This document shows positions 531 to 49,509 of a stretch of 56,788 nt of DNA, in pieces; position 1 is the first letter of the stretch, and every line of letters starts with the position of its first letter. The position numbers and the translations under genes are program-made. The stretch comes from an uncultured Bacilli bacterium (GTDB lineage Bacteria; Bacillota_I; Bacilli_A; RF39; UBA660): the NCBI GenBank assembly GCA_947626595.1, contig CANQST010000004.1:1-56788 (forward strand), read 5' to 3'. Below the pieces are notes generated by a model. It saw only the letters and a list, made by a program, of their open reading frames with translations. It did no database searches and had not been told where the DNA came from.

Positions 531-1292
531 ATGAAAATATATTTAGATATAGTTTTCTTACTTAATTTTATGATAGATTTCTTTATTCTTTATGGAGTTA
601 AAAAGGTATTAAAAGAAAATATATCACTTAAAAGATTATTACTAGGAAGTATTACTGGTAGTCTTACTATATTATTACTTTTTATAAATGTAAATAATAT
701 AGTACTTTTACTAAGTAAATTTATAGTAAGTGTATTGATAATACTTATTACTTTTGGGAAAAAACTTTTTCTTAAGAACTTAGCTTATTTCTATTTAATA
801 AGTATTATACTAGGTGGAAGTTTTTACTTATTAGATATTACTTATGTAGAAGAAAATTTATTAGTATTTAGAAATAATCATTTAATTAACTTATTTATAT
901 TAGGAGGAGGAAGTATATTTATTATATATTTATTTGTAAAAGAAAGGATTAATTATAAAGAGACTTTTTCTAATAAGTATATAGTTAAAATAATTATAAA
1001 TAAAAGTGAATATATTTTAGATGGTTTTATTGATACTGGTAATAGATTATTTGATCCATATAAGAAAAGGAGTGTTATCTTAGTAAATTTAGAATTAAAG
1101 AAGAAAAGTAATTATATTTATGTTCCTTATAAAGCACTTAATACTACGGGAGTAATTCCATGTATAAAACCAGATAAAGTAATTATTGAAAATAAAGAAT
1201 TTAATAATTGTTTAATAGGTTTAAGTAAAGAGAAATTTAAAATAGATAATTTTTCATGCATATTACCAAATAAATTTAAGGAGGAATTATGA
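531..1292 (+). CDS. spoIIGA: Sigma-E processing aspartic peptidase SpoIIGA
   Basis: Multi-TM N-terminal half, then a C-terminal domain with the aspartic protease motif GFIDTGN. It overlaps the downstream pro-sigma-E gene by 4 nt, the classic spoIIGA-sigE arrangement. Confidence 0.85.
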   Translation: MKIYLDIVFLLNFMIDFFILYGVKKVLKENISLKRLLLGSITGSLTILLLFINVNNIVLLLSKFIVSVLIILITFGKKLFLKNLAYFYLISIILGGSFYLLDITYVEENLLVFRNNHLINLFILGGGSIFIIYLFVKERINYKETFSNKYIVKIIINKSEYILDGFIDTGNRLFDPYKKRSVILVNLELKKKSNYIYVPYKALNTTGVIPCIKPDKVIIENKEFNNCLIGLSKEKFKIDNFSCILPNKFKEEL

Positions 1293-1978
1293 AGATAATT
1301 TTATTTATTAAGAAGTTATTTAGAAAAGTAGGAAGTATTTTTTATGTGGGCGCTACGGATATGTTACCAGAGCCTTTATCAAGAGAGATGGAAGACTATT
1401 ATGTTAGTTTAAAAGACGATGGTGATTTGAAAGCTAAAGATATTTTAATTGAACATAATTTAAGATTAGTTGTTTTCTTGGCTAAGAAATATGAAAATAC
1501 AGGAGTAGATTTAGAAGATTTAGTTAGTATTGGTACTATTGGATTAATTAAAGGGATAAATACTTTTAGTAAGAGTAAAAATATAAAGCTTGCGACTTAT
1601 GCATCTCGTTGTATAGATAATGAAATATTAATGTTTTTAAGGAAAAATAAGAAATTAAAGAGTGAAGTAAGTATAGATGCATCTTTATCTTTTGATAGTG
1701 ATGGTAATGAACTTCATTTAGAAGATGTTTTAGGAACAGATCCTGATATTGTTACTAAGGGAATTGAAGAGGAAACAGAAAGAAGTATTATGATAAATGA
1801 AGTTCTTCATTTGAAACCTAGAGATAGAGATATAATGATATTAAGATATGGATTAATGGGTAGTGAAGAAATGACCCAAAAAGAAGTAGCAGAAAAGCTT
1901 GGTATAAGTCAGTCTTATATATCGCGAATTGAAAAAAAGGTAATTAAAAGATTAAAAACACTAGTCAATTATACATAA
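1289..1978 (+). CDS. sigE: Sporulation sigma factor SigE (pro-sigma-E)
   Basis: N-terminal pro-sequence followed by YVGATDMLPEPLS. Sigma-70 region 2 (HNLRLVVFLAKKY, ATYASRCIDNEI) and region 4 (TQKEVAEKLGISQSYISRIEKK). Located directly after spoIIGA. Confidence 0.9.
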   Translation: MKIILFIKKLFRKVGSIFYVGATDMLPEPLSREMEDYYVSLKDDGDLKAKDILIEHNLRLVVFLAKKYENTGVDLEDLVSIGTIGLIKGINTFSKSKNIKLATYASRCIDNEILMFLRKNKKLKSEVSIDASLSFDSDGNELHLEDVLGTDPDIVTKGIEEETERSIMINEVLHLKPRDRDIMILRYGLMGSEEMTQKEVAEKLGISQSYISRIEKKVIKRLKTLVNYT

Positions 1979-2007
1979 ATATTTTATAATTATAGTGGGT
2001 GGTTAAT

Positions 2008-2619
2008 ATGGCAAAGTTATATTTTAGACATGGCGCAATGAATAGTGGTAAAACTGCTTTATTGTTACAAGTTGCTCATAATTATGAAGAACAAGGACAA
2101 AAAGTTATTGTATTAAAACCAAAGATTGATACTAAAGGAGAGGAAAAAATTACTTCAAGGATAGGCTTATCTAGGAAAGTAGACCATTTAATTGAAGATG
2201 GTGAAGATATATTTCTATATGTTAAAGATAATCATAAAGATGCTGCTTGCGTTTTAGTGGATGAGGCACAATTTATTGAAAGAAAGCAAGCAGACGATTT
2301 ATTAAAAATAGTTGTTTTACTAGATATACCGGTTATTTGTTATGGATTAAGACTGGATTTTAAGGGAAATGGTTTTCCTGGGTCTACTAGGTTATTAGAA
2401 ATAGCTCAATCAATTGAAGAGTTGAAAACTATTTGTAAATGTGGTAGAAAAGCTATGTTTAATGCTAGATTTTTAGATGGAGAATTTACTTTAGATGGAG
2501 ATCAGGTTGCGATAGATGGTAAGGATAATGTTACCTATGAAGCATTATGTCACTATTGTTATTACGATAAGAAAATAGAATATGAAGGAAAGAAGTTAGT
2601 GAAGAATAGGAACTGTTAA
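2008..2619 (+). CDS. tdk: Thymidine kinase
   Basis: MAKLYFRHGAMNSGKT P-loop, VDEAQF motif and a C-terminal zinc-knuckle pattern (CKCG...CHYC). The ATG at 2008 is preferred over the GTG at 1999 given in the ORF track. Confidence 0.93.
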   Translation: MAKLYFRHGAMNSGKTALLLQVAHNYEEQGQKVIVLKPKIDTKGEEKITSRIGLSRKVDHLIEDGEDIFLYVKDNHKDAACVLVDEAQFIERKQADDLLKIVVLLDIPVICYGLRLDFKGNGFPGSTRLLEIAQSIEELKTICKCGRKAMFNARFLDGEFTLDGDQVAIDGKDNVTYEALCHYCYYDKKIEYEGKKLVKNRNC

Positions 2620-2681
2620 GATATTTCTTAATAGTTTTTTCTTTTGAAAAAAAATTAAAAAAAATTGAATTTTTACTAATT

Positions 2682-2789
2682 TGTTAAATTCAGGGTAAAA
2701 AGTACTCTGAATTTTATATTTTCCCCTAGGCGAATTTGTAAAATTCATAGTAAAAATGGCTGTGAATTTTGCAAAACCTCGGTTTGCAT
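2682..2789. repeat. Two related hairpin repeats plus a third hairpin upstream of the Rpn gene
   Basis: ttgttaaattcag-ggtaaaaagtact-ctgaatttt (2682-2716) and ttgtaaaattcatag-taaaaatgg-ctgtgaatttt (2736-2771) share arms AAATTCA/TGAATTT and a GTAAAAA loop core. tgcaaa-acctcgg-tttgca follows at 2769-2789. Confidence 0.4.
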
Positions 2790-2845
2790 TAGTCTTTTTA
2801 TTGTGTTAAACTTGCTTTTGTTCTTATGGGGAGGAGGTGTTTCTA

Positions 2846-3736
2846 TTGAAGAAAGAACAAAAGAAAAAAGAAGAAGATAAAGAAGAAAAAGAGGAGAAAG
2901 TGTATTATACTAGTAAATGTGATGGTGTCTTTAAAGCTATCTTTTGTAATGAAAATGATTTATCTTTACTAAAAGCTTTATTAGAAGATAAATTAAACAT
3001 TAAAATAGAAACTATGAAACTACTTAATAATGAATTAGTAATTGATTATGTTGGTGACAAGATTAAGCATGTTGATGCGATAGTTGAAGTTAATGATAAA
3101 ATGATAGTTAATATCGAAGTTAATGGATACTATGCAGGATGGAGAGCCTTTAGAAACTTTGTTTATTTCTGTCAAATAATAGTAAGTAGAATAGTAAATG
3201 GACAAAGTTATGATTTAAAAAATGAATTTGTCCAAATAAATTTAACATATGGCTTATCTAAGAAAAAAGAAATAGTACGTAATATAGAGTATTCAGAAAA
3301 TGTTAAAATGTTAGAATTTAATATGGACAAAATAAGAGACTTATGGTATTATAATGATGAAGAGGAAATAGAGAAGTATAAGTATCTAATAATGCAAGAT
3401 TTAGATAAGGAGCAATTAGATAAATTTTGTGAGAAATTTAAAGGAGATGATGTAATCATGACATATAGAGAGAAATTAAATAAGTTAAATGATGGAGGTT
3501 ATCATTTTTTAACTCCTGAAGAGGAAGAATTATATGAAAGAAATACATATAAAGAGATGGGAAGAGACGAAGGCTTAAAGGAAGGACTAGAACAAGGCCG
3601 TGTTGAGGGAAAAGAAGAAGGCAGAAAAGAAGAAAAAGAAGAAACAGCTAGAAATATGCTTAAAGATAAGGTTGATGTAGCTTTAATTTCTAAGTATACT
3701 AATCTACCAACATCACGTATTATGACACTATTATAA
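2846..3736 (+). CDS. Rpn-family recombination-promoting nuclease / PD-(D/E)XK putative transposase
   Basis: N-terminal CDGVFKAIF...LLKALL, then core D-x-IVEV...IVNIEVN and RNFVYFCQIIVSRIVNGQSY, which fits the PD-(D/E)XK pattern. The C-terminal tail is EG-rich (EGLKEGLEQGRVEGKEEGRKE...ARNMLKD...ISKYTNL), typical of Rpn/YhgA-like tails. TTG at 2846 sits 9 nt after GGAGG and is preferred to the GTG at 2837. Confidence 0.75.
   Translation: MKKEQKKKEEDKEEKEEKVYYTSKCDGVFKAIFCNENDLSLLKALLEDKLNIKIETMKLLNNELVIDYVGDKIKHVDAIVEVNDKMIVNIEVNGYYAGWRAFRNFVYFCQIIVSRIVNGQSYDLKNEFVQINLTYGLSKKKEIVRNIEYSENVKMLEFNMDKIRDLWYYNDEEEIEKYKYLIMQDLDKEQLDKFCEKFKGDDVIMTYREKLNKLNDGGYHFLTPEEEELYERNTYKEMGRDEGLKEGLEQGRVEGKEEGRKEEKEETARNMLKDKVDVALISKYTNLPTSRIMTLL
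3458..3736 (+). CDS. Possible internally initiated C-terminal product of the Rpn gene (92 aa)
   Basis: An in-frame ATG at 3458 is preceded by aaaggagatgatgtaatc. This is nearly the same RBS context as the free-standing duplicate gene at 3772 (aaaggaggagtgataatc). Confidence 0.35.
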   Translation: MTYREKLNKLNDGGYHFLTPEEEELYERNTYKEMGRDEGLKEGLEQGRVEGKEEGRKEEKEETARNMLKDKVDVALISKYTNLPTSRIMTLL

Positions 3737-42603: not shown

Positions 42604-42628
42604 AAAAACTCGAAGAATTCGAGTTTTA
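42604..42628 (-). terminator. Terminator after tRNA-Glu
   Basis: aaaactcgaa-gaa-ttcgagtttt is a perfect 10-bp stem. T-runs are present on both strands. Confidence 0.65.
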
Positions 42629-42636
42629 TTTTAAAT

Positions 42637-42713
42637 TGGTAGTCTGTACGGGGTTCGAACCCGTGAATGCCACCTTGAGAGGGTGGTGTGTTAAGCCACT
42701 TCACCAACAGACC
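42637..42713 (-). tRNA. tRNA-Glu (anticodon CTC), CCA encoded
   Basis: The reverse complement GGTCTGTTGGTGAAGTGGCTTAACACACCACCCTCTCAAGGTGGCATTCACGGGTTCGAACCCCGTACAGACTACCA folds as a cloverleaf. The anticodon stem is CCACC/GGTGG with loop CTCTCAA. Confidence 0.85.
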
Positions 42714-42780: not shown

Positions 42781-45700
42781 TTACTTTTTCATGAAGACTT
42801 TACTGTCTTCTTTAGCAGTAATTATATTAATAAATTTCTTTAGAGATAATAACTCTTCTTTAGTAAGATTAATAATATTTTTACTAAAAAGATTATCTAG
42901 TATTTCTTTAGTACTAGGCTCTAGTAAAGATAAAGTAGCATTACTAGAAGTTAGATAGATATTTCTAATATTAGTTAGTTCTTCATTAGTAAAGGCTGTT
43001 TTTTCTTTTTCTTTCATAATCTTATTAGATATAGCAATACTTATCTTTTTATATTTAACTTTCTCTTCAGGAGTTAATCTATATTTAGCAATATCGTCTA
43101 AGTTCTTACCATTTCTTTTAAAGAAAAGTTCTTGATCTTCTTTAGAAAAAGTTTCAACTATTCTTAGTAAAGTATCTTTATCAACAGCAAATTTTAAAGT
43201 AGTAGCTTTTCTATTTAGGATAGAAGATATCTTAATAGATACTTTATGATAAGCTTGTTTTTCTTCTTTAGAAAGGCTACCTATAATATTTAAAGATCTA
43301 TCATACTTTTTATAGAATAAATTTCTTTCTTCTTCATTTAAATAGTTATCTACTATTTCAAGTACTTTCTCATTAGGAGCTTTAAATCTAGCTTTAGTAT
43401 CTTTTTTCTTCTTTTGAAGATTTAATTTTATAGAGATTTTTCTAGTTATTTTCGAATATAGTTCTTTTTCAAAAGAATTTAATGGCTCGCTACCTACTCT
43501 ATCTAAAGATTTACCTAGCTTTTTATAAATAATTTGTTGTTCTTGTTCATCTAGGGAAGAGATTATTTCTAATAAAGTAGCATTATCTGTCATAAATTTA
43601 GTTTTATTTTGAGGAGAAATATTTTTAATTTTAGAAATATATTCATTACTTATATAACCATTTTTATTTAGAAAGGCTAAGGCTTCATTATATAGAGAAA
43701 TTATTTCTTGTAAATGATTAGCAGAAGTATTTAAACTAATAGTTTTATTTTTTCTAATATTTGGAATATTAAACTTATCTATTAATATATTTTTATCTTT
43801 TCTATTAAAAAGCATGGCAACTTTCTTTTTATTATTATCAATATGTTTAGAAGATAATGATTTTTGAGATATATCATTTACTTTAAGAATTAATTCTTCA
43901 TTTAAAGAGTTAATATTATTAATAATACTTTCAAATAAAGGTAGTATTTCTTGATAAAGTCTTTTCTTTTCTTCTTCTTGTAATGATTTTAATATATAAG
44001 CATTTTTAGTTATATTGTAATGGGCTCTGATAAGAGCTTTATCAGTATTATTAAAGTATCTTAGAGCTTTATTAATAGTTGGTCTATCAAAGTCTAAAGT
44101 AGTTTTAGTATCATTTATCTTTTTAATTATTTCTTCATAGAAAGTTTCTTCTTCTTTAGTTAATCTATAAGGATAAATCTTAGTTAAGTCATTATTAAAT
44201 CTTTTATAGAAAATAATTTGTTCATTGATAGGAAGTTTTTTTACTTTATAAAGAAGTTCTTCATTATTAGAAAAAGGAGCCTTTTCTCTTGTTTCTTTTC
44301 TTATTGATAATATTATTTCTTCTTTTAGATGACTTTTTTCTTTAAGAGAAGATAGGGCTTCTAGAAATAATTTAATAATTTTTTGATAATGTCTTTTATC
44401 TTCTTCATTTATATTTTCTAGATTAATATAATTATTATAGTAATCATACTTAGTATTAATAAAGATAGCATCTTCTTTAGTAAAGAATGGTAATATTTCT
44501 TTCTTTAGATTTTTATATTTTTCTTTAGATAAATCTTTTTTAGATAAGTCATTTACTTTTACTTGTAACTCATTACTAAGAGTAGAATTATCTTTTAAAT
44601 ATTTAATAATCTTTTTACATAATAAGCTAAGTTCTTCTAGTCTTTTTACTTCTTCTTCAGTTAAGTTATTTAGACGAGTAATTTTTCTTTTAACAGCAAA
44701 CTTTTCTTTTAGAAGTTCTTTATCTTCATCATTAAAATAATCTAAGGCTTTATCTAAGATAGTTCTATTTTCATAGATTACTTCAATTAAAGGATGTTTT
44801 TCTTTTAATCTTTTTTCTCTTTGAATAGACATACTTATTTTTCTTGCGAGTTTTATATATATTTCTTGTTCTTCTTCAGATAATGGTTTATTAATATAAT
44901 TACCATTAAGATTTAAATTGTAATGACGATAGAATATTTTTTGTTCTTTTTTAGTAAAGGAAGAAATTATTTCTTCTAGATGTTCTTTAGGAATATTATA
45001 TGTCTTTTTTTGTTTAAGAGATAGATTTTTTATTTTACTTAAAGTAAGAGGAGATATTTCCTTCTTTTCTTGTTTTTCTTTTAAAGCAAGTTTTAATATA
45101 GGAATAAGCTTTTCTTTTAGTAATAAGTAATCTTCTTGTTGAAGAGGAGTATTATTATACTTTCGATACTTATAAAAATTCTTTAATATTCTAGTATTTT
45201 TACTATCAAAGTATTCTAAGACTTCTTCTACTTCTTTTCTTGCTGCTGGGGGTGTATGAAAAGAAGTTATTTTTTCATTTAGATTATTAATACGATCAAG
45301 TAATCTTTTATTTATAGAATATGTTATATTATGAAGTTCTGTTTTATTTAGAAAATCTTCTCCAAAACGCATCTTTATTAGATTAATATCAGATACTCTT
45401 ACATAGTTTAACATAAACTTTAACTCTTCTTTAGAAGAAGCTGTTGTTAAGTCTTGGAAAGAGGCTTTAGTAATATCTAAATTATAATTATTAGTATTTT
45501 CTATATTAAAAGCATAAGTTATTAGTTTTTGATAAGTATTATTACTAGATACATGAAGTAGTTCAGTTAAAGAATAAATATTTTCATTTCTCTTAGGAAA
45601 ATTGCTAAGTATATACTCTTGTTCTTGTTGGGTTAAATAAGTTAAGGCTTTAGTTAGACTTTCTTTAGAAATAATATTATTTTCTTTTCTTGTTTTTACT

Positions 45701-47523
45701 TTTCTTTTAGAATTAATACTTACATTTTTTCTTAGTTTTGTTAGTATTACTTTATAAAAGTAGTATTCTACAGGAGGAGAAAGGACTTCTCCATCATTAG
45801 AATAGCCATTTTTATATTTAGTTTTTAAGATATTTAATTCAAAATCTTCTAGGTTTTCTAAGTACTTAGTTAATTCATTATTATCTATATTTAGTAAAGT
45901 AAGTAAAGATGTTTTTGTATTTACAATAATTTCTGGATGCATAAGGGCTTTACAAAAGTTTCTTAGTTCGTCTACTATTACAGTAAATTCTTTATTATTA
46001 GGAGGTACTATTTTATTAGAATAATTAGGTCCATATAAGCTTTGAAGATACTTTTGTTGGTCTTCTTGTAAGTAAGTTATGGCTTTAAGAGCATATTCTT
46101 TTTTGTAGCATGACTTTAAGCAGGTAAAAAGAGTTACTTTCTTTTGTATTTTATTATTACCATTAGGATTATCTAAGTAGTTAGTAGTATTTTTAATATC
46201 TTTATCATTATTTAATTTATTAAGAGCTTTTTCTTCTATTTGTCTAACTCTTTCTCTAGTAATATTTAGAGACTTTCCTACTTCTTCTAAGCTTTTCTGA
46301 GGTCCTTCAAGACCAAATCTTTCTTTAATAATATATAGTTCTCTTTTATCTAATCTATCTAAGCTTTTATATAGTATTTTTCTTAAGTCTTTTCTAATAT
46401 AGTCTTCTTCAATAGCGACTTTACTATCAGGAATAAAGTCTTGTAGTTCACTTTCACTATCGTCTTCACTTACTAAGGCATTATAACTAATTATTTCTTT
46501 GGCGTTTGTTAAGAGATTGGAAACTTCTTCTTTAGATAATTTTGTATATCTCTCAATCTCTTCATTAGTAGGATTTCTTCCTAATGTTAGAGATAATTCA
46601 GTTGTTGCTTTTTTTATTTTATTTAATTTATCATTAAAATGAACAGGTAGTCTAATCATGCGTCCATTATTAGCGATGGCTCTAGTTATAGCTTGTCTAA
46701 TCCACCAAGTAGCGTAAGTGGAAAATTTTTGGTTCCTTGTAATATCAAATCTATCAATAGCGGTAATTAGACCAATAATACCTTCTTGAATTAAGTCTTC
46801 TAGGGAAAGTCCACGACCAATATATTTCCTAGCAATACTAACAACTAGCTTTTGATTATGTAAAATAACATATTCTTTAGCTTTTTCGTCATTATTTTTA
46901 ATTCTAGTAAAGTAGTCTTTTTCTTCTTCTCTTGTAAGTATTCCTTTAGGGATATTTTGAAGCATATCTTTAATTATATCAGTTGAAAAATAATTATCAT
47001 TAGTATTACTACTATTACTACTTTCTTCAGGAAGAACTTCTTCTTCTATTTCAATATCATTTTCTAAGCAAAAAGGCTCTAGTAAAATGTTTAGATTACT
47101 TTCTAATAAGAGATGCAGTTTCTTAGTATTTAGTTTATCATTAGTAAAAAGTAGTTTATTAATACTTTCTTTTACATATTCATTTTCTATTAATATTAAG
47201 CATTCTTCATAAGATAAGTCTGGTATTAGATAAGTAATATTATTTATAAAATCAGTAAGGTCATTATTCTTAGAGAAGAAGTAATTAGTATAATTAATTA
47301 AAACATTTTTATTCTTTATTTCTTTTTTTAATATTTTTAGATATTCATTAGTAAGATATTTTTCTAATTTCTTAGCATCAAATGTCTTTTCTTTTTCTAA
47401 ATAAGTATTTATGGCATTATCAAATAATTTATCTTCTTCAACACTTAAAAAAGAAAAGTCTTTTCTTACTTTTTCTTTTATATCATTTATTATTTGTAAA
47501 GTTTTCCTTCTATCTAAGTCCAT
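42781..47523 (-). CDS. Giant RpoD-like sigma-70 family protein with a ~1,100-aa C-terminal repeat array
   Basis: Sigma regions 2-4: HNQKLVVSIARKY, LIQEGIIGLITAIDRF, FSTYATWWIRQAITRAI, IRLPVH, LEEVGKSLNITRERVRQIEEKALNKL. The ATG at 47523 follows ggtggtatt, and the ORF track gives an alternative ATG at 47550. The 4.7-kb ORF is uninterrupted. Confidence 0.8.
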   Translation of the reverse strand: MDLDRRKTLQIINDIKEKVRKDFSFLSVEEDKLFDNAINTYLEKEKTFDAKKLEKYLTNEYLKILKKEIKNKNVLINYTNYFFSKNNDLTDFINNITYLIPDLSYEECLILIENEYVKESINKLLFTNDKLNTKKLHLLLESNLNILLEPFCLENDIEIEEEVLPEESSNSSNTNDNYFSTDIIKDMLQNIPKGILTREEEKDYFTRIKNNDEKAKEYVILHNQKLVVSIARKYIGRGLSLEDLIQEGIIGLITAIDRFDITRNQKFSTYATWWIRQAITRAIANNGRMIRLPVHFNDKLNKIKKATTELSLTLGRNPTNEEIERYTKLSKEEVSNLLTNAKEIISYNALVSEDDSESELQDFIPDSKVAIEEDYIRKDLRKILYKSLDRLDKRELYIIKERFGLEGPQKSLEEVGKSLNITRERVRQIEEKALNKLNNDKDIKNTTNYLDNPNGNNKIQKKVTLFTCLKSCYKKEYALKAITYLQEDQQKYLQSLYGPNYSNKIVPPNNKEFTVIVDELRNFCKALMHPEIIVNTKTSLLTLLNIDNNELTKYLENLEDFELNILKTKYKNGYSNDGEVLSPPVEYYFYKVILTKLRKNVSINSKRKVKTRKENNIISKESLTKALTYLTQQEQEYILSNFPKRNENIYSLTELLHVSSNNTYQKLITYAFNIENTNNYNLDITKASFQDLTTASSKEELKFMLNYVRVSDINLIKMRFGEDFLNKTELHNITYSINKRLLDRINNLNEKITSFHTPPAARKEVEEVLEYFDSKNTRILKNFYKYRKYNNTPLQQEDYLLLKEKLIPILKLALKEKQEKKEISPLTLSKIKNLSLKQKKTYNIPKEHLEEIISSFTKKEQKIFYRHYNLNLNGNYINKPLSEEEQEIYIKLARKISMSIQREKRLKEKHPLIEVIYENRTILDKALDYFNDEDKELLKEKFAVKRKITRLNNLTEEEVKRLEELSLLCKKIIKYLKDNSTLSNELQVKVNDLSKKDLSKEKYKNLKKEILPFFTKEDAIFINTKYDYYNNYINLENINEEDKRHYQKIIKLFLEALSSLKEKSHLKEEIILSIRKETREKAPFSNNEELLYKVKKLPINEQIIFYKRFNNDLTKIYPYRLTKEEETFYEEIIKKINDTKTTLDFDRPTINKALRYFNNTDKALIRAHYNITKNAYILKSLQEEEKKRLYQEILPLFESIINNINSLNEELILKVNDISQKSLSSKHIDNNKKKVAMLFNRKDKNILIDKFNIPNIRKNKTISLNTSANHLQEIISLYNEALAFLNKNGYISNEYISKIKNISPQNKTKFMTDNATLLEIISSLDEQEQQIIYKKLGKSLDRVGSEPLNSFEKELYSKITRKISIKLNLQKKKKDTKARFKAPNEKVLEIVDNYLNEEERNLFYKKYDRSLNIIGSLSKEEKQAYHKVSIKISSILNRKATTLKFAVDKDTLLRIVETFSKEDQELFFKRNGKNLDDIAKYRLTPEEKVKYKKISIAISNKIMKEKEKTAFTNEELTNIRNIYLTSSNATLSLLEPSTKEILDNLFSKNIINLTKEELLSLKKFINIITAKEDSKVFMKK

Positions 47524-47571
47524 AATACCACCAAACCTTATATCTATCATACTATATCGAAAGATAAATTT

Positions 47572-49443
47572 CTAGTTTTTTTTCGTATATACTTTATCTT
47601 CTTTAATGATATTTAATAATTTTTTAACTATTTCTCTAGTAAAATAGTATTCTATTGGTAATTCTAGTTCTTTAGAAGTAGATGTTTCAAGGTTATTATT
47701 ATATTTCTTATAAATAATATTTCTATCAGTTTGAGGAAGTTTTTCTATTAATTCAAGTAATCTATCTTTAGATACTCCTAAAACGATGCATAGACTAAGA
47801 TTTGTTATGCGGACATTTTCTGGTTTAGCATAGGCTCTTAAGAAGACTTTTAATTTATGAATAATATGGTCATGTACTGGGTCAACTACGATAGGAATTT
47901 TCTTTTCATAGAAATTACCATATAAACTTTTTAAGTATTTTACCTCAAGAGGATCTAGAAGGTCAATTGCTTTCATTAAGTGCTTTTTACCAATATCAAA
48001 GTAAGAAATTAGTAATACTTCTTCTTGTTTATTTAAGTCGATATCATAGTCTAAGTAATTAACTAATTTACGAGCATCAGAATTATTTCTTAGTTTAATT
48101 AGACCTTTCTTTTCTATTTGACGAATACGTTCTCTTGTGACATTGTACATTGAACCTACTTCTTCTAATGTCTTAGGGATACCATCAATTAAACCAAAAC
48201 GATGTAATATTACTTGTCTTTCTTTTTCGTTTAAGTTACTTTCTAGAATAGTGCGAATTCTTTTTTGCAAATCTACTTTTAAGTAATCTTTTTCTAAATC
48301 TACTTCGTCAGGTATTAAATCAATCATTTCTGTTTCTTCTTTACTATCGTCACTACTAACATCAATATTATAACTTATAGTATTAGCAGATAGTTTTATT
48401 ATTTCTTCTACTTTTTCTACGGGAACATCCAAAGATGCCGCTATTTCTTCTTTAGTAGGTTCTCTTTTTAAATCGTTTGCGAGTTTATTTTTAATACGAT
48501 TATATTTATTTACTTCTTCATTGAAATATACTGGTAATCTGATAGTTCTACCATATTGGGCAACGGCTCTTGATAGGACTTGTCTAATCCACCAACTAGC
48601 ATAGGTTGAGAAACGATATCCTTTACTTATATCAAAATAATCAACAGCTTTCATTAGACCAAATGAACCTTCTTGAATTAAGTCATTTAAAGATATACCA
48701 CTTGATACATATTTACTAGCAATACTCGCAACTAGACGCATATTATGTTCAACAATATAATTTTTTAATTCACTATGACCCATGGAAATTTCTCTTAAGA
48801 GTCTTTCTTGTTCTTCATTAGATAAAGTAGCAGGTAAATTATACATGTAGTCTCTAACAGCATCTCCAGTTAAGACGATTTCTTCACTATCATTAGTTTT
48901 TTCTTGTATTTCTTCTTCTACTATGATATTATTCTTCTCACAATATAAATCTATTACGGGAAAGGCTGATGTTTCTAGTAAATATTCAACTTTTTTTAGA
49001 TTTAATTTACCTCTACTTGTTAGTAGTCTTTTTATTAAGCTTTCTAGATTAGAATTATCTAATAAATAAGTCCACTCATCAAAAGAAATATCTGGAAAGA
49101 TATAACTTATATCATTACAATAGCTAATTAATAGTTCTTCTAGGTTAGTCATTTTACTAAGATAATTATTAGTAAAATCAAGTAAATATCTATTAACATT
49201 ATCATTATTTATTCTTTTTTTAACTTCTTTTTTTAAAAGATAAATATAGTATCTATCAATTTCTTTTACTAAAGTATTAATATCAGTAATCTTTTTTTGT
49301 AGTAGGATATCTAGACTTTTTTCGAAAAGATGTTTTCTTTCTTCAGTAGTTAGATTTAAGAAAGAATAATTTTCATATACTGATTTTTCTTTTACTTCTA
49401 ATTTTTTTAAGAAATTATCTTTTTCTTTTAATGATAAATTCAT
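47572..49443 (-). CDS. RpoD-like sigma-70 family protein (about 623 aa) with an N-terminal domain and a ~160-aa C-terminal extension
   Basis: HNMRLVASIASKY, LIQEGSFGLMKAVDYF, FSTYASWWIRQVLSRAV, IRLPVY, LEEVGSMYNVTRERIRQIEKKGLIKL. The ATG at 49443 follows gggagttgttggt. It is colinear with the first ~615 residues of the downstream giant paralogue. Confidence 0.85.
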   Translation of the reverse strand: MNLSLKEKDNFLKKLEVKEKSVYENYSFLNLTTEERKHLFEKSLDILLQKKITDINTLVKEIDRYYIYLLKKEVKKRINNDNVNRYLLDFTNNYLSKMTNLEELLISYCNDISYIFPDISFDEWTYLLDNSNLESLIKRLLTSRGKLNLKKVEYLLETSAFPVIDLYCEKNNIIVEEEIQEKTNDSEEIVLTGDAVRDYMYNLPATLSNEEQERLLREISMGHSELKNYIVEHNMRLVASIASKYVSSGISLNDLIQEGSFGLMKAVDYFDISKGYRFSTYASWWIRQVLSRAVAQYGRTIRLPVYFNEEVNKYNRIKNKLANDLKREPTKEEIAASLDVPVEKVEEIIKLSANTISYNIDVSSDDSKEETEMIDLIPDEVDLEKDYLKVDLQKRIRTILESNLNEKERQVILHRFGLIDGIPKTLEEVGSMYNVTRERIRQIEKKGLIKLRNNSDARKLVNYLDYDIDLNKQEEVLLISYFDIGKKHLMKAIDLLDPLEVKYLKSLYGNFYEKKIPIVVDPVHDHIIHKLKVFLRAYAKPENVRITNLSLCIVLGVSKDRLLELIEKLPQTDRNIIYKKYNNNLETSTSKELELPIEYYFTREIVKKLLNIIKEDKVYTKKN

Positions 49444-49509
49444 ACCAACAACTCCCATTAACTTTTTTCGTGTTTAATATTATAATACATTTTAGAAGAA
49501 AAAAAAAGA

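Follow-up and report, generated by a model that had tools for sequence, protein, structure and literature searches.

The DNA considered here is a stretch of 56,788 nucleotides (nt) from an uncultured Bacilli bacterium (GTDB lineage Bacteria; Bacillota_I; Bacilli_A; RF39; UBA660; GenBank assembly GCA_947626595.1, contig CANQST010000004.1, positions 1 to 56,788), and this whole stretch is referred to below as the window. Two genes for RpoD-like sigma factors lie in it as head-to-tail neighbours on the minus strand: a gene of 628 amino acids (aa) at 47572–49458, called S, and a gene of 1589 aa at 42781–47550, called L. In both proteins, a sigma-70 core stands between an acidic N-terminal domain and a C-terminal extension made of modules derived from sigma region 4. 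With a confidence somewhat above even, their sequences can be read as those of old tandem paralogues that would act as accessory, primary-like (group-2-like) sigma-70 factors, neither of them being the housekeeping sigma. The features of the pair are the following, all on the minus strand, where ORF stands for open reading frame, HMM for hidden Markov model and pI for isoelectric point.

49459–49509, minus strand: spacer between the Mur ligase gene and S, with an AT-rich hairpin and T-run at the Mur ligase stop and then a TATAAT box (sequence read)
47572–49458, minus strand: S gene, probable RpoD-like accessory sigma factor of 628 aa (ORF, translation, Pfam r2/r3/r4)
48874–49458, minus strand: S N-terminal domain, aa 1–195, acidic and all-helical, at the place of region 1.1 (E 2e-18 against L)
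48064–48873, minus strand: S sigma core, aa 196–465, a diverged region 1.2 and then regions 2, 3 and 4
47575–48063, minus strand: S C-terminal extension, aa 466–628, one di-module with module cores at aa 491–537 and 563–614 (E 3e-16 against L)
47551–47571, minus strand: 21-nt spacer between S and L, which becomes 48 nt with an L start at 47523 (sequence read)
42781–47550, minus strand: L gene, RpoD-like sigma with a long repeat tail, 1589 aa (ORF, translation, Pfam r2/r3/r4)
46990–47550, minus strand: L N-terminal domain, aa 1–187, paralogous to its S counterpart, pI 4.7
46186–46989, minus strand: L sigma core, aa 188–455, regions 1.2–4, with region 2.3/2.4 identical to that of the genome's RpoD
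45691–46185, minus strand: L first di-module, aa 456–620, the counterpart of the S extension
42784–45690, minus strand: L tail, aa 621–1589, about 10 more region-4-derived modules (module HMM)

S and L are true paralogues. BLASTP returns one colinear alignment between them (S 21–627, L 23–622; 620 columns, 38% identity, E 2e-103), in keeping with the colinearity over about 615 residues in three regions that an earlier reading of the sequence, the first-pass annotation, had described. The likeness outside the sigma core is statistically supported because the N-terminal ~190 aa and the ~160 aa that follow region 4, each compared alone, align at E 2e-18 and E 3e-16, respectively. The non-canonical N-terminal domain and post-region-4 extension that the two proteins had been said to share are therefore real common features, and similarity outside the core, whose lack of support had been named as a possible objection, holds up.

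The core of both proteins is of the primary type. S and L both match PF04542, PF04539 and PF04545 (Sigma70_r2, r3 and r4) with E-values of 1e-14 to 1e-21, and in S these regions fall at aa 235–304, 314–385 and 408–458. A diverged region 1.2 is present and aligns with that of RpoD (hhalign), and in Foldseek the best structural matches to the modelled core of S are SigA structures (E about 1e-15). The core-binding region 2.1/2.2 is conserved. For −10 recognition L has FSTYATWWIRQAITRAI and agrees exactly with the RpoD of the genome throughout region 2.3/2.4, and S carries FSTYASWWIRQVLSRAV; in region 4.2 TRER(I/V)RQIE is kept in S and L alike. The S and L of the window retain all −10 and −35 recognition residues and are close to RpoD in them, and the group-1-type motifs quoted in the first-pass annotation are present as described.

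That annotation had left it unclear which of the two, if either, is the housekeeping sigma, and had proposed searching the complete genome for a conventional dnaG–rpoD locus. The assembly (1.35 Mb in 68 contigs, 95% complete) contains eight sigma-70 region 2 matches genome-wide, and the proposed search is answered on contig C6, where a 577-aa DnaG (TIGR01391, 419 bits) is directly followed by a 364-aa RpoD. The C6 RpoD reaches 594.7 bits against the NCBIfam equivalog cut-off of 572 (NF006666) and passes it, whereas S (258 bits) and L (245 bits) stay below this cut-off with less than half of the C6 RpoD score. Both are far under every RpoD cut-off, although the best NCBIfam models for both are of the RpoD type; their cores are 40–45% identical to the genome's own RpoD. 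Of the seven other genomes of the genus, six have an orthologue of the C6 RpoD with 92–96% identity, and the remaining one, which is incomplete, has a truncated match of 179 aa with 87% identity. The other five sigma genes of the window's genome resemble the SigE/K, SigF/G and SigH types. Judged by sequence, neither S nor L is the housekeeping sigma, and this role belongs to the dnaG-linked RpoD on C6. The doubt expressed earlier is thereby settled against both genes, and the accompanying remark that neither is preceded by dnaG was accurate, since the upstream neighbour of S encodes a Mur ligase. A separate canonical rpoD, which had been named together with pseudogenisation of the pair as an outcome that would count against the proposal, does exist, but S and L are not pseudogenised. 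The idea that one of the pair, most plausibly L, is nevertheless the housekeeping sigma could appeal to FSTYATWWIRQAITRAI and TRERVRQIE, which L has as in RpoD, and to the RpoD-type models that score best for S and L. It is very improbable in view of the dnaG–rpoD pair on C6 with its score above the equivalog cut-off, of the conservation of the C6 RpoD across the genus (92–96%, compared with 36–44% for S and L), and of the position of S and L far under all RpoD cut-offs and without region 1.1.

The other sigma factors of this genome form a sporulation-type set of two pro-sigma E/K-like, two SigF/G-like and one SigH-like protein, which is notable for a genome of 1.35 Mb. Their genes are found in the window at 531–1978 (plus strand) and on contigs C22, C25, C9 and C13. 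One E/K-like gene lies in the window behind an ORF of 253 aa, a candidate that could be SpoIIGA.

In the place of region 1.1, S and L carry their own N-terminal domain. In the AlphaFold2 (AF2) model of S, residues ~10–175 form nine helices at a predicted local distance difference test score (pLDDT) of 80–93, and a disordered acidic linker (aa 183–197, pLDDT < 50) precedes the sigma core. The pI of the domain is 5.1 in S and 4.7 in L. It has no family in Pfam, NCBIfam, PHROGs or PADLOC, PF03979 (region 1.1) has no match in S or L, and a profile of the domain finds chance-level matches only among PDB sequences. As a single sequence searched against 5.8 billion proteins it returned the query alone, with no confirmed match in GTDB genomes, and its alignment (A1) is too variable to seed a collection scan. 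A whole-protein Foldseek search of S returned sigma cores only. Among 151 genomes sampled at one per genus, two copies of the domain occur in the window's own genome only. A relationship in which the domain is a stretched region 1.1 was considered and rejected: the hhalign match (88.6% probability, E 3e-07) is due to region 1.2 only, and with region 1.2 removed the E-value is 0.22, the same as for a reversed control.

The C-terminal extension begins directly after ..NYLD, at the position that corresponds to the C-terminus of RpoD (..KDFLTD). An iterated HMM defines within it a module core of ~52 residues with the consensus SKEELLEALSYLS.EEQKLLKKKYG......L..EE..FYKKIIPKLK. By this HMM there are 2 copies in S, 12–13 in L and up to 14 in long L orthologues, and two modules make up a recurring unit of ~160 aa (the di-module), of which S has one and L about six. 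Sequence comparison identifies the modules as degenerate copies of sigma region 4, because three lines of evidence agree. An HMM built from the tails only matches region 4.1 of unrelated RpoDs, always at the same position; cleaner modules in relatives match Pfam Sigma70_r4_2 and r4 (26.4 bits for P0247, where the Pfam gathering threshold is 25.7, and a summed E of 9e-13 for the modules of P0130 against the Pfam region 4 models); and in the di-module profile one whole ~70-residue module aligns with region 4 of FliA (6pmi_F 165–238, E 0.0015). In this full-length alignment with FliA (6pmi chain F) the module shares the L..L.e.E...L..rYG signature of region 4.1. The first-pass annotation had seen the extension as built of region-4-like modules, a view that the FliA alignment and the Pfam matches in relatives now substantiate, and it had counted two of them in S, which is exactly the number that the module HMM finds.

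The modules differ from sigma region 4 where region 4 reads DNA. The S extension is modelled by AF2 from a 52-sequence alignment with a pLDDT of 94.9 and a predicted template modelling score (pTM) of 0.85, and in each module a short helix is followed by two more helices, a long loop and a single long helix. Sequence-specific reading of the −35 element by the modules is unlikely, because a loop replaces the first helix of the helix-turn-helix and the recognition residues of the TRERIRQIE type are gone. A Foldseek search with the di-module against PDB and BFVD found no significant neighbour, with SigA region 4 chains recurring at E around 5. The window's own tail has no family in Pfam, NCBIfam, PHROGs or PADLOC, and neither Pfam nor NCBIfam contains a model of the module. 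In L the tail is basic, with a pI of 9.4 and a net charge of +43, and contains a duplicated block of ~220 aa (aa 869–1084 and 1110–1309; 32% identity, E 1e-18), which is seen by explicit block-to-block comparison, whereas composition-corrected self-BLAST of L is blank. This old duplication gives partial support to the earlier suggestion that the array grew stepwise, but the nearest outgroups already have 4–10 modules, so that S may have become shorter over time instead of being a precursor or an early stage of growth.

The module is more widely distributed than the gene pair. The relatives in the genus are metagenome-assembled genomes labelled 'uncultured Bacilli bacterium' from rabbit gut, and the locus has the order Mur ligase–S–L–[TetR]–ABC–ABC (ABC, ATP-binding cassette), syntenic in five species, with the TetR gene present only sometimes. 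Across the genus S has 617–628 aa and L has 1026, 1040, 1556, 1589 or 1709 aa. One species of the genus (G003) has instead a single gene of 796 aa with four modules between the Mur ligase and TetR genes (L031 / L025). In a word-seeded search of 5.8 billion proteins only one other full-length relative of S was found. The di-module profile, run against 1.84 billion representatives, detects 127 proteins at E<=1e-3, of which 62 also reach E<=1e-10; a sigma core is found in 58 of the 127 and the N-terminal domain in 18, and many of the representatives lack a detected core and are possibly fragments. The number of modules per protein ranges from 2 to 17. In P0143, P0193, P0220 and P0239 the array is N-terminal to the sigma core, and some of the cores fused to modules are short and comprise no more than regions 2 and 4. 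The module is thus a mobile accessory of several sigma types, primary-like and SigE/K-like, because it is fused to SigE/K-like cores and also placed ahead of cores. Among the proteins with a short core that were inspected, P0228 has its highest scores with the SigE/SigK models, although these stay under the model cut-offs, and its C-terminus consists of two clean modules derived from region 4; P0230 is, by inspection, built in the same way.

In a sample of 399 genomes of the class, 15 match, including the window's own; 14 belong to the window's family and one marginal match lies outside it. Three sampled genera of the family have a single module-bearing sigma gene each a fourth has two neighbouring ORFs that consist of modules only, and the S–L pair is absent from these four sampled genera. 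The module-only ORFs (L043, G183:C54, 4099–7638, minus strand) are 542 and 633 aa long, with five modules each and no sigma core detected, and the contig ends 17 nt beyond the called start of the 542-aa ORF. They are either two parts of one split gene, the product of a truncated assembly or module proteins that stand alone. A further relative, P0006 (L035 3656–5745, 481 aa), is RpoD-like and has the same kind of N-terminal domain without a tail. Its gene is followed by a TrmK-like methyltransferase gene and has a serine recombinase gene ~750 nt upstream. In many Bacillota, rpoD precedes a TrmK-like methyltransferase gene, and P0006 may serve its organism as the housekeeping sigma and may stand at the root of the S/L family.

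In a tree of the colinear ~620 residues, the S orthologues form one clade (support 99) and the L orthologues another (94), and the G003 gene joins two long metagenomic proteins (P0132 and P0133) in a third. All three lie within one clade (98) that is well apart from RpoD. According to this tree, S and L arose by duplication before the species of the genus diverged, because the S and L orthologues form separate supported clades. The long L orthologues (1556 and 1709 aa) are colinear over their full length (~1500–1700 alignment columns), with 41% identity over 1690 columns between L and its counterpart in G004. Along the tail, identity between orthologues is 38–51% with few gaps, and the short L forms lack roughly residues 924–1436.

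Both genes evolve fast in comparison with their surroundings. Identity between species is 36–44% for S and L, 72–89% for the flanking Mur ligase and ABC genes and 92–96% for RpoD. The rate of non-synonymous change (dN, by NG86) is 0.49–0.58 for S and L and 0.07–0.14 for the flanks, with a synonymous rate (dS) of about 1 in both, so that S and L change non-synonymously about five times faster than their neighbours. Frames of 1556–1709 codons in three species and of 617–628 codons in four are nevertheless intact at ~25% G+C. On these sequence comparisons, S and L are real genes under selection, because of the long open frames at this composition, the conserved positions of the modules and the confident fold of the module, yet they are far less constrained than housekeeping genes.

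Several observations weigh against the reading of S and L as accessory sigma factors. Their dN/dS ratio (omega) is 0.43–0.63 compared with 0.06–0.15 for the flanks, a much weaker constraint than is expected of a working sigma; these ratios are rough, being NG86 values only with dS near saturation. Region by region, S and L are fast everywhere, the sigma core included (dN 0.37–0.68, omega up to 0.88). The S orthologue G001_S619 (P0004; L032 of G001, 1690–3549, plus strand) has FSTYATAFISNSI instead of FSTYATWWIRQAI and has lost the Trp-Trp pair of region 2.3, so it may be unable to melt and open promoters; in its region 4.2, RGER stands in place of TRER. The pair is not obligatory, as the single gene of G003 shows. 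The N-terminal domain and the extension are both without a significant structural neighbour, and what is said below of their roles consists of hypotheses drawn from charge, position and analogy only. Some of the same facts would suit functionless duplicates that are relaxed and slowly decaying, with repeats that are a neutral low-complexity expansion in an AT-rich genome: non-synonymous change is high in all regions, the Trp pair is lost in G001_S619 and G003 has one gene only. Such decay is nonetheless distinctly unlikely. By our own estimate ~8–9% of random codons would be stops at ~25% G+C, and frames of up to 1709 codons have stayed open; orthologues are colinear with few gaps and 38–51% identity along the tail; the di-module folds confidently in AF2; 127 cluster representatives retain the module, which is found joined to sigma factors of several types; and the overall omega does not reach 1.

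The locus itself is consistent with expression of the two genes together. The head-to-tail arrangement, the length of 623–628 aa for S and the gap of 48–21 nt given in the first-pass annotation all agree with the ORFs and their candidate start codons. For S, the second ATG at 49443, with GGAG ~10 nt upstream, is by sequence the more likely start and gives 623 aa; an identical 623-aa protein is on record on four contigs. The first ATG of L is at 47550, which leaves a gap of 21 nt to S, and translation probably begins at the ATG at 47523, which is preceded by GGTGGT and gives a protein of 1580 aa and a gap of 48 nt. S and L are probably co-transcribed, because a terminator scan of the spacer between them detected none. 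The spacer between the Mur ligase gene and S is a possible promoter region of the pair, given the TATAAT box that follows the hairpin and T-run; this box was missed by the consensus promoter scan. Between 42300 and 51100, 56 sigma-70-type promoter-like hexamer pairs were found and 52.5 are expected from shuffled sequence, which is no enrichment. Consensus hexamers alone are weakly informative in AT-rich DNA, and this may bear on the usefulness of extra contacts between sigma and DNA. The neighbours of the pair are the Mur ligase gene and genes for ABC exporters. Between the L stop and the first of the latter lies a tRNA-Glu gene (anticodon CTC; 42637–42713, minus strand), which is followed by a palindromic hairpin at 42605–42627; in three related species this interval has a TetR-family gene instead.

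Compared with group 1 sigma factors (RpoD/SigA), S and L have regions 1.2, 2, 3 and 4 in the same order and near-identical recognition residues in regions 2.3/2.4 and 4.2. In contrast to group 1, they have a new ~190-aa domain in place of region 1.1, are not linked to dnaG, score below all equivalog cut-offs, evolve far faster and continue for 160–1130 aa beyond region 4. On each of four criteria, namely region 1.1, equivalog score, synteny and sequence conservation, S and L fall outside group 1. Group 2 sigma factors, such as RpoS, the cyanobacterial SigB–E and Streptomyces HrdA/C/D, are extra RpoD-like factors that exist beside a group 1 sigma, conserve the promoter-recognition regions and have no region 1.1. 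By sequence, S and L would belong with them, as they have regions 1.2–4 with group-1-like regions 2.4 and 4.2, lack region 1.1 and share their genome with a distinct group 1 sigma. To our knowledge, group 2 factors end at region 4 and none has such an N-terminal helical domain or a tail of region 4 copies, and they are not a recognised feature of Bacillota. More generally, sigma factors rank among the most thoroughly studied bacterial proteins, and those outside the extracytoplasmic function (ECF) group are, as far as we know, taken to end at region 4.

Domains fused after region 4 do occur in ECF sigma factors. For instance, SigG1 of ECF56 has a SnoaL_2 C-terminal extension (PMC7730460), and the ECF factors have been reclassified (PMC7826278). 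Such extensions are thought to regulate the sigma in cis, the sigma itself is a minimal sigma2–sigma4 protein and the extension folds are unrelated to the present one. S and L have instead a full core of regions 1.2–4, regions 1.2 and 3 included, and a repeated extension derived from region 4, so that the extended ECF factors offer an analogy only. S and L fit an undescribed sigma family that has a region-4-derived repeat tail (profile A3/A4), and sigma factors with region 4 arrays are not described in the full-text literature searched.

The tail also raises the question of interference with the transcription machinery. Several phage proteins target sigma region 4, e.g., T4 AsiA and gp67 of the Staphylococcus aureus phage G1, and the array could be a decoy or sensor that soaks up or detects such proteins. 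This would explain both the fast evolution of S and L relative to the flanking genes and the lineage-specific expansion of the array from 2 to 17 copies; the modules keep the scaffold of region 4 but not its DNA-reading helix-turn-helix, and the listed components of defence systems already include one RpoD-like sigma, MzaA. MzaA (NCBIfam NF041931, PADLOC PDLC02203), which is long, RpoD-like and extended at its N-terminus by a large addition, gives the top-scoring model for S and L. Assignment of the pair to MZA defence was rejected: the scores of 275 and 251 bits lie far under the cut-off of 800, the match covers model positions ~430–720 (the core only, as also with PADLOC) and no Mza partners are nearby. 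A role as phage decoy has little probability, given that no known defence genes lie beside the pair, that the MzaA match is to a generic sigma core and its partners are missing, that the locus is chromosomal and syntenic with housekeeping genes on its flanks, that the modules keep their positions from one species to another and are not shuffled, and that no PHROG or viral structural match was found.

Alternatively, S and L could mainly regulate the availability of polymerase, occupying the core enzyme or the beta-flap and competing with RpoD and the sporulation sigmas as short and long versions of different strength. The conserved region 2.1/2.2 together with the loss of melting residues in one S orthologue would fit this, as would modules that might share the binding partner of the real region 4 and that also occur on SigE/K-like sigmas and on proteins without a detected sigma core. 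Such a role is unlikely, since the S and L of the window keep all −10 and −35 residues, which is hard to explain if no promoter is read, and flap binding by the modules is without direct evidence. A combination of the two ideas is likewise doubtful. In it, the tethered pseudo-region-4 would be a portable control element or decoy that competes for the beta-flap tip or for region 4 binders, phage takeover factors included; S with one di-module and L with six would be a matched weak and strong pair in one operon; and the fast evolution would reflect an arms race and not decay.

For S and L as accessory sigma factors, the following mechanism can be envisaged. Both would bind core RNA polymerase and initiate at SigA-like promoters, as may be expected because the sigma core, the core-binding region and the promoter-reading residues are kept. 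By analogy, the acidic N-terminal domain would, like region 1.1, control whether the free sigma can bind DNA. The basic tail of pseudo-region-4 modules would emerge from the holoenzyme at the upstream border of the −35 element, from where it could contact upstream DNA or partner proteins, or fold back and compete with the real region 4. In either case it would tune activity and would not be a second reader of a specific site.

In these uncultured, small-genome gut Bacilli there appears to exist an accessory RpoD-like branch of sigma factors that combines a new N-terminal domain with as many as 17 degenerate region 4 copies, and one genus has kept two such genes side by side. If it is true that the tail regulates access to the beta-flap, to upstream DNA or to region 4 binders, it would represent a new control of transcription initiation, and it would also be a ready-made tool for the study of region 4 interactions.

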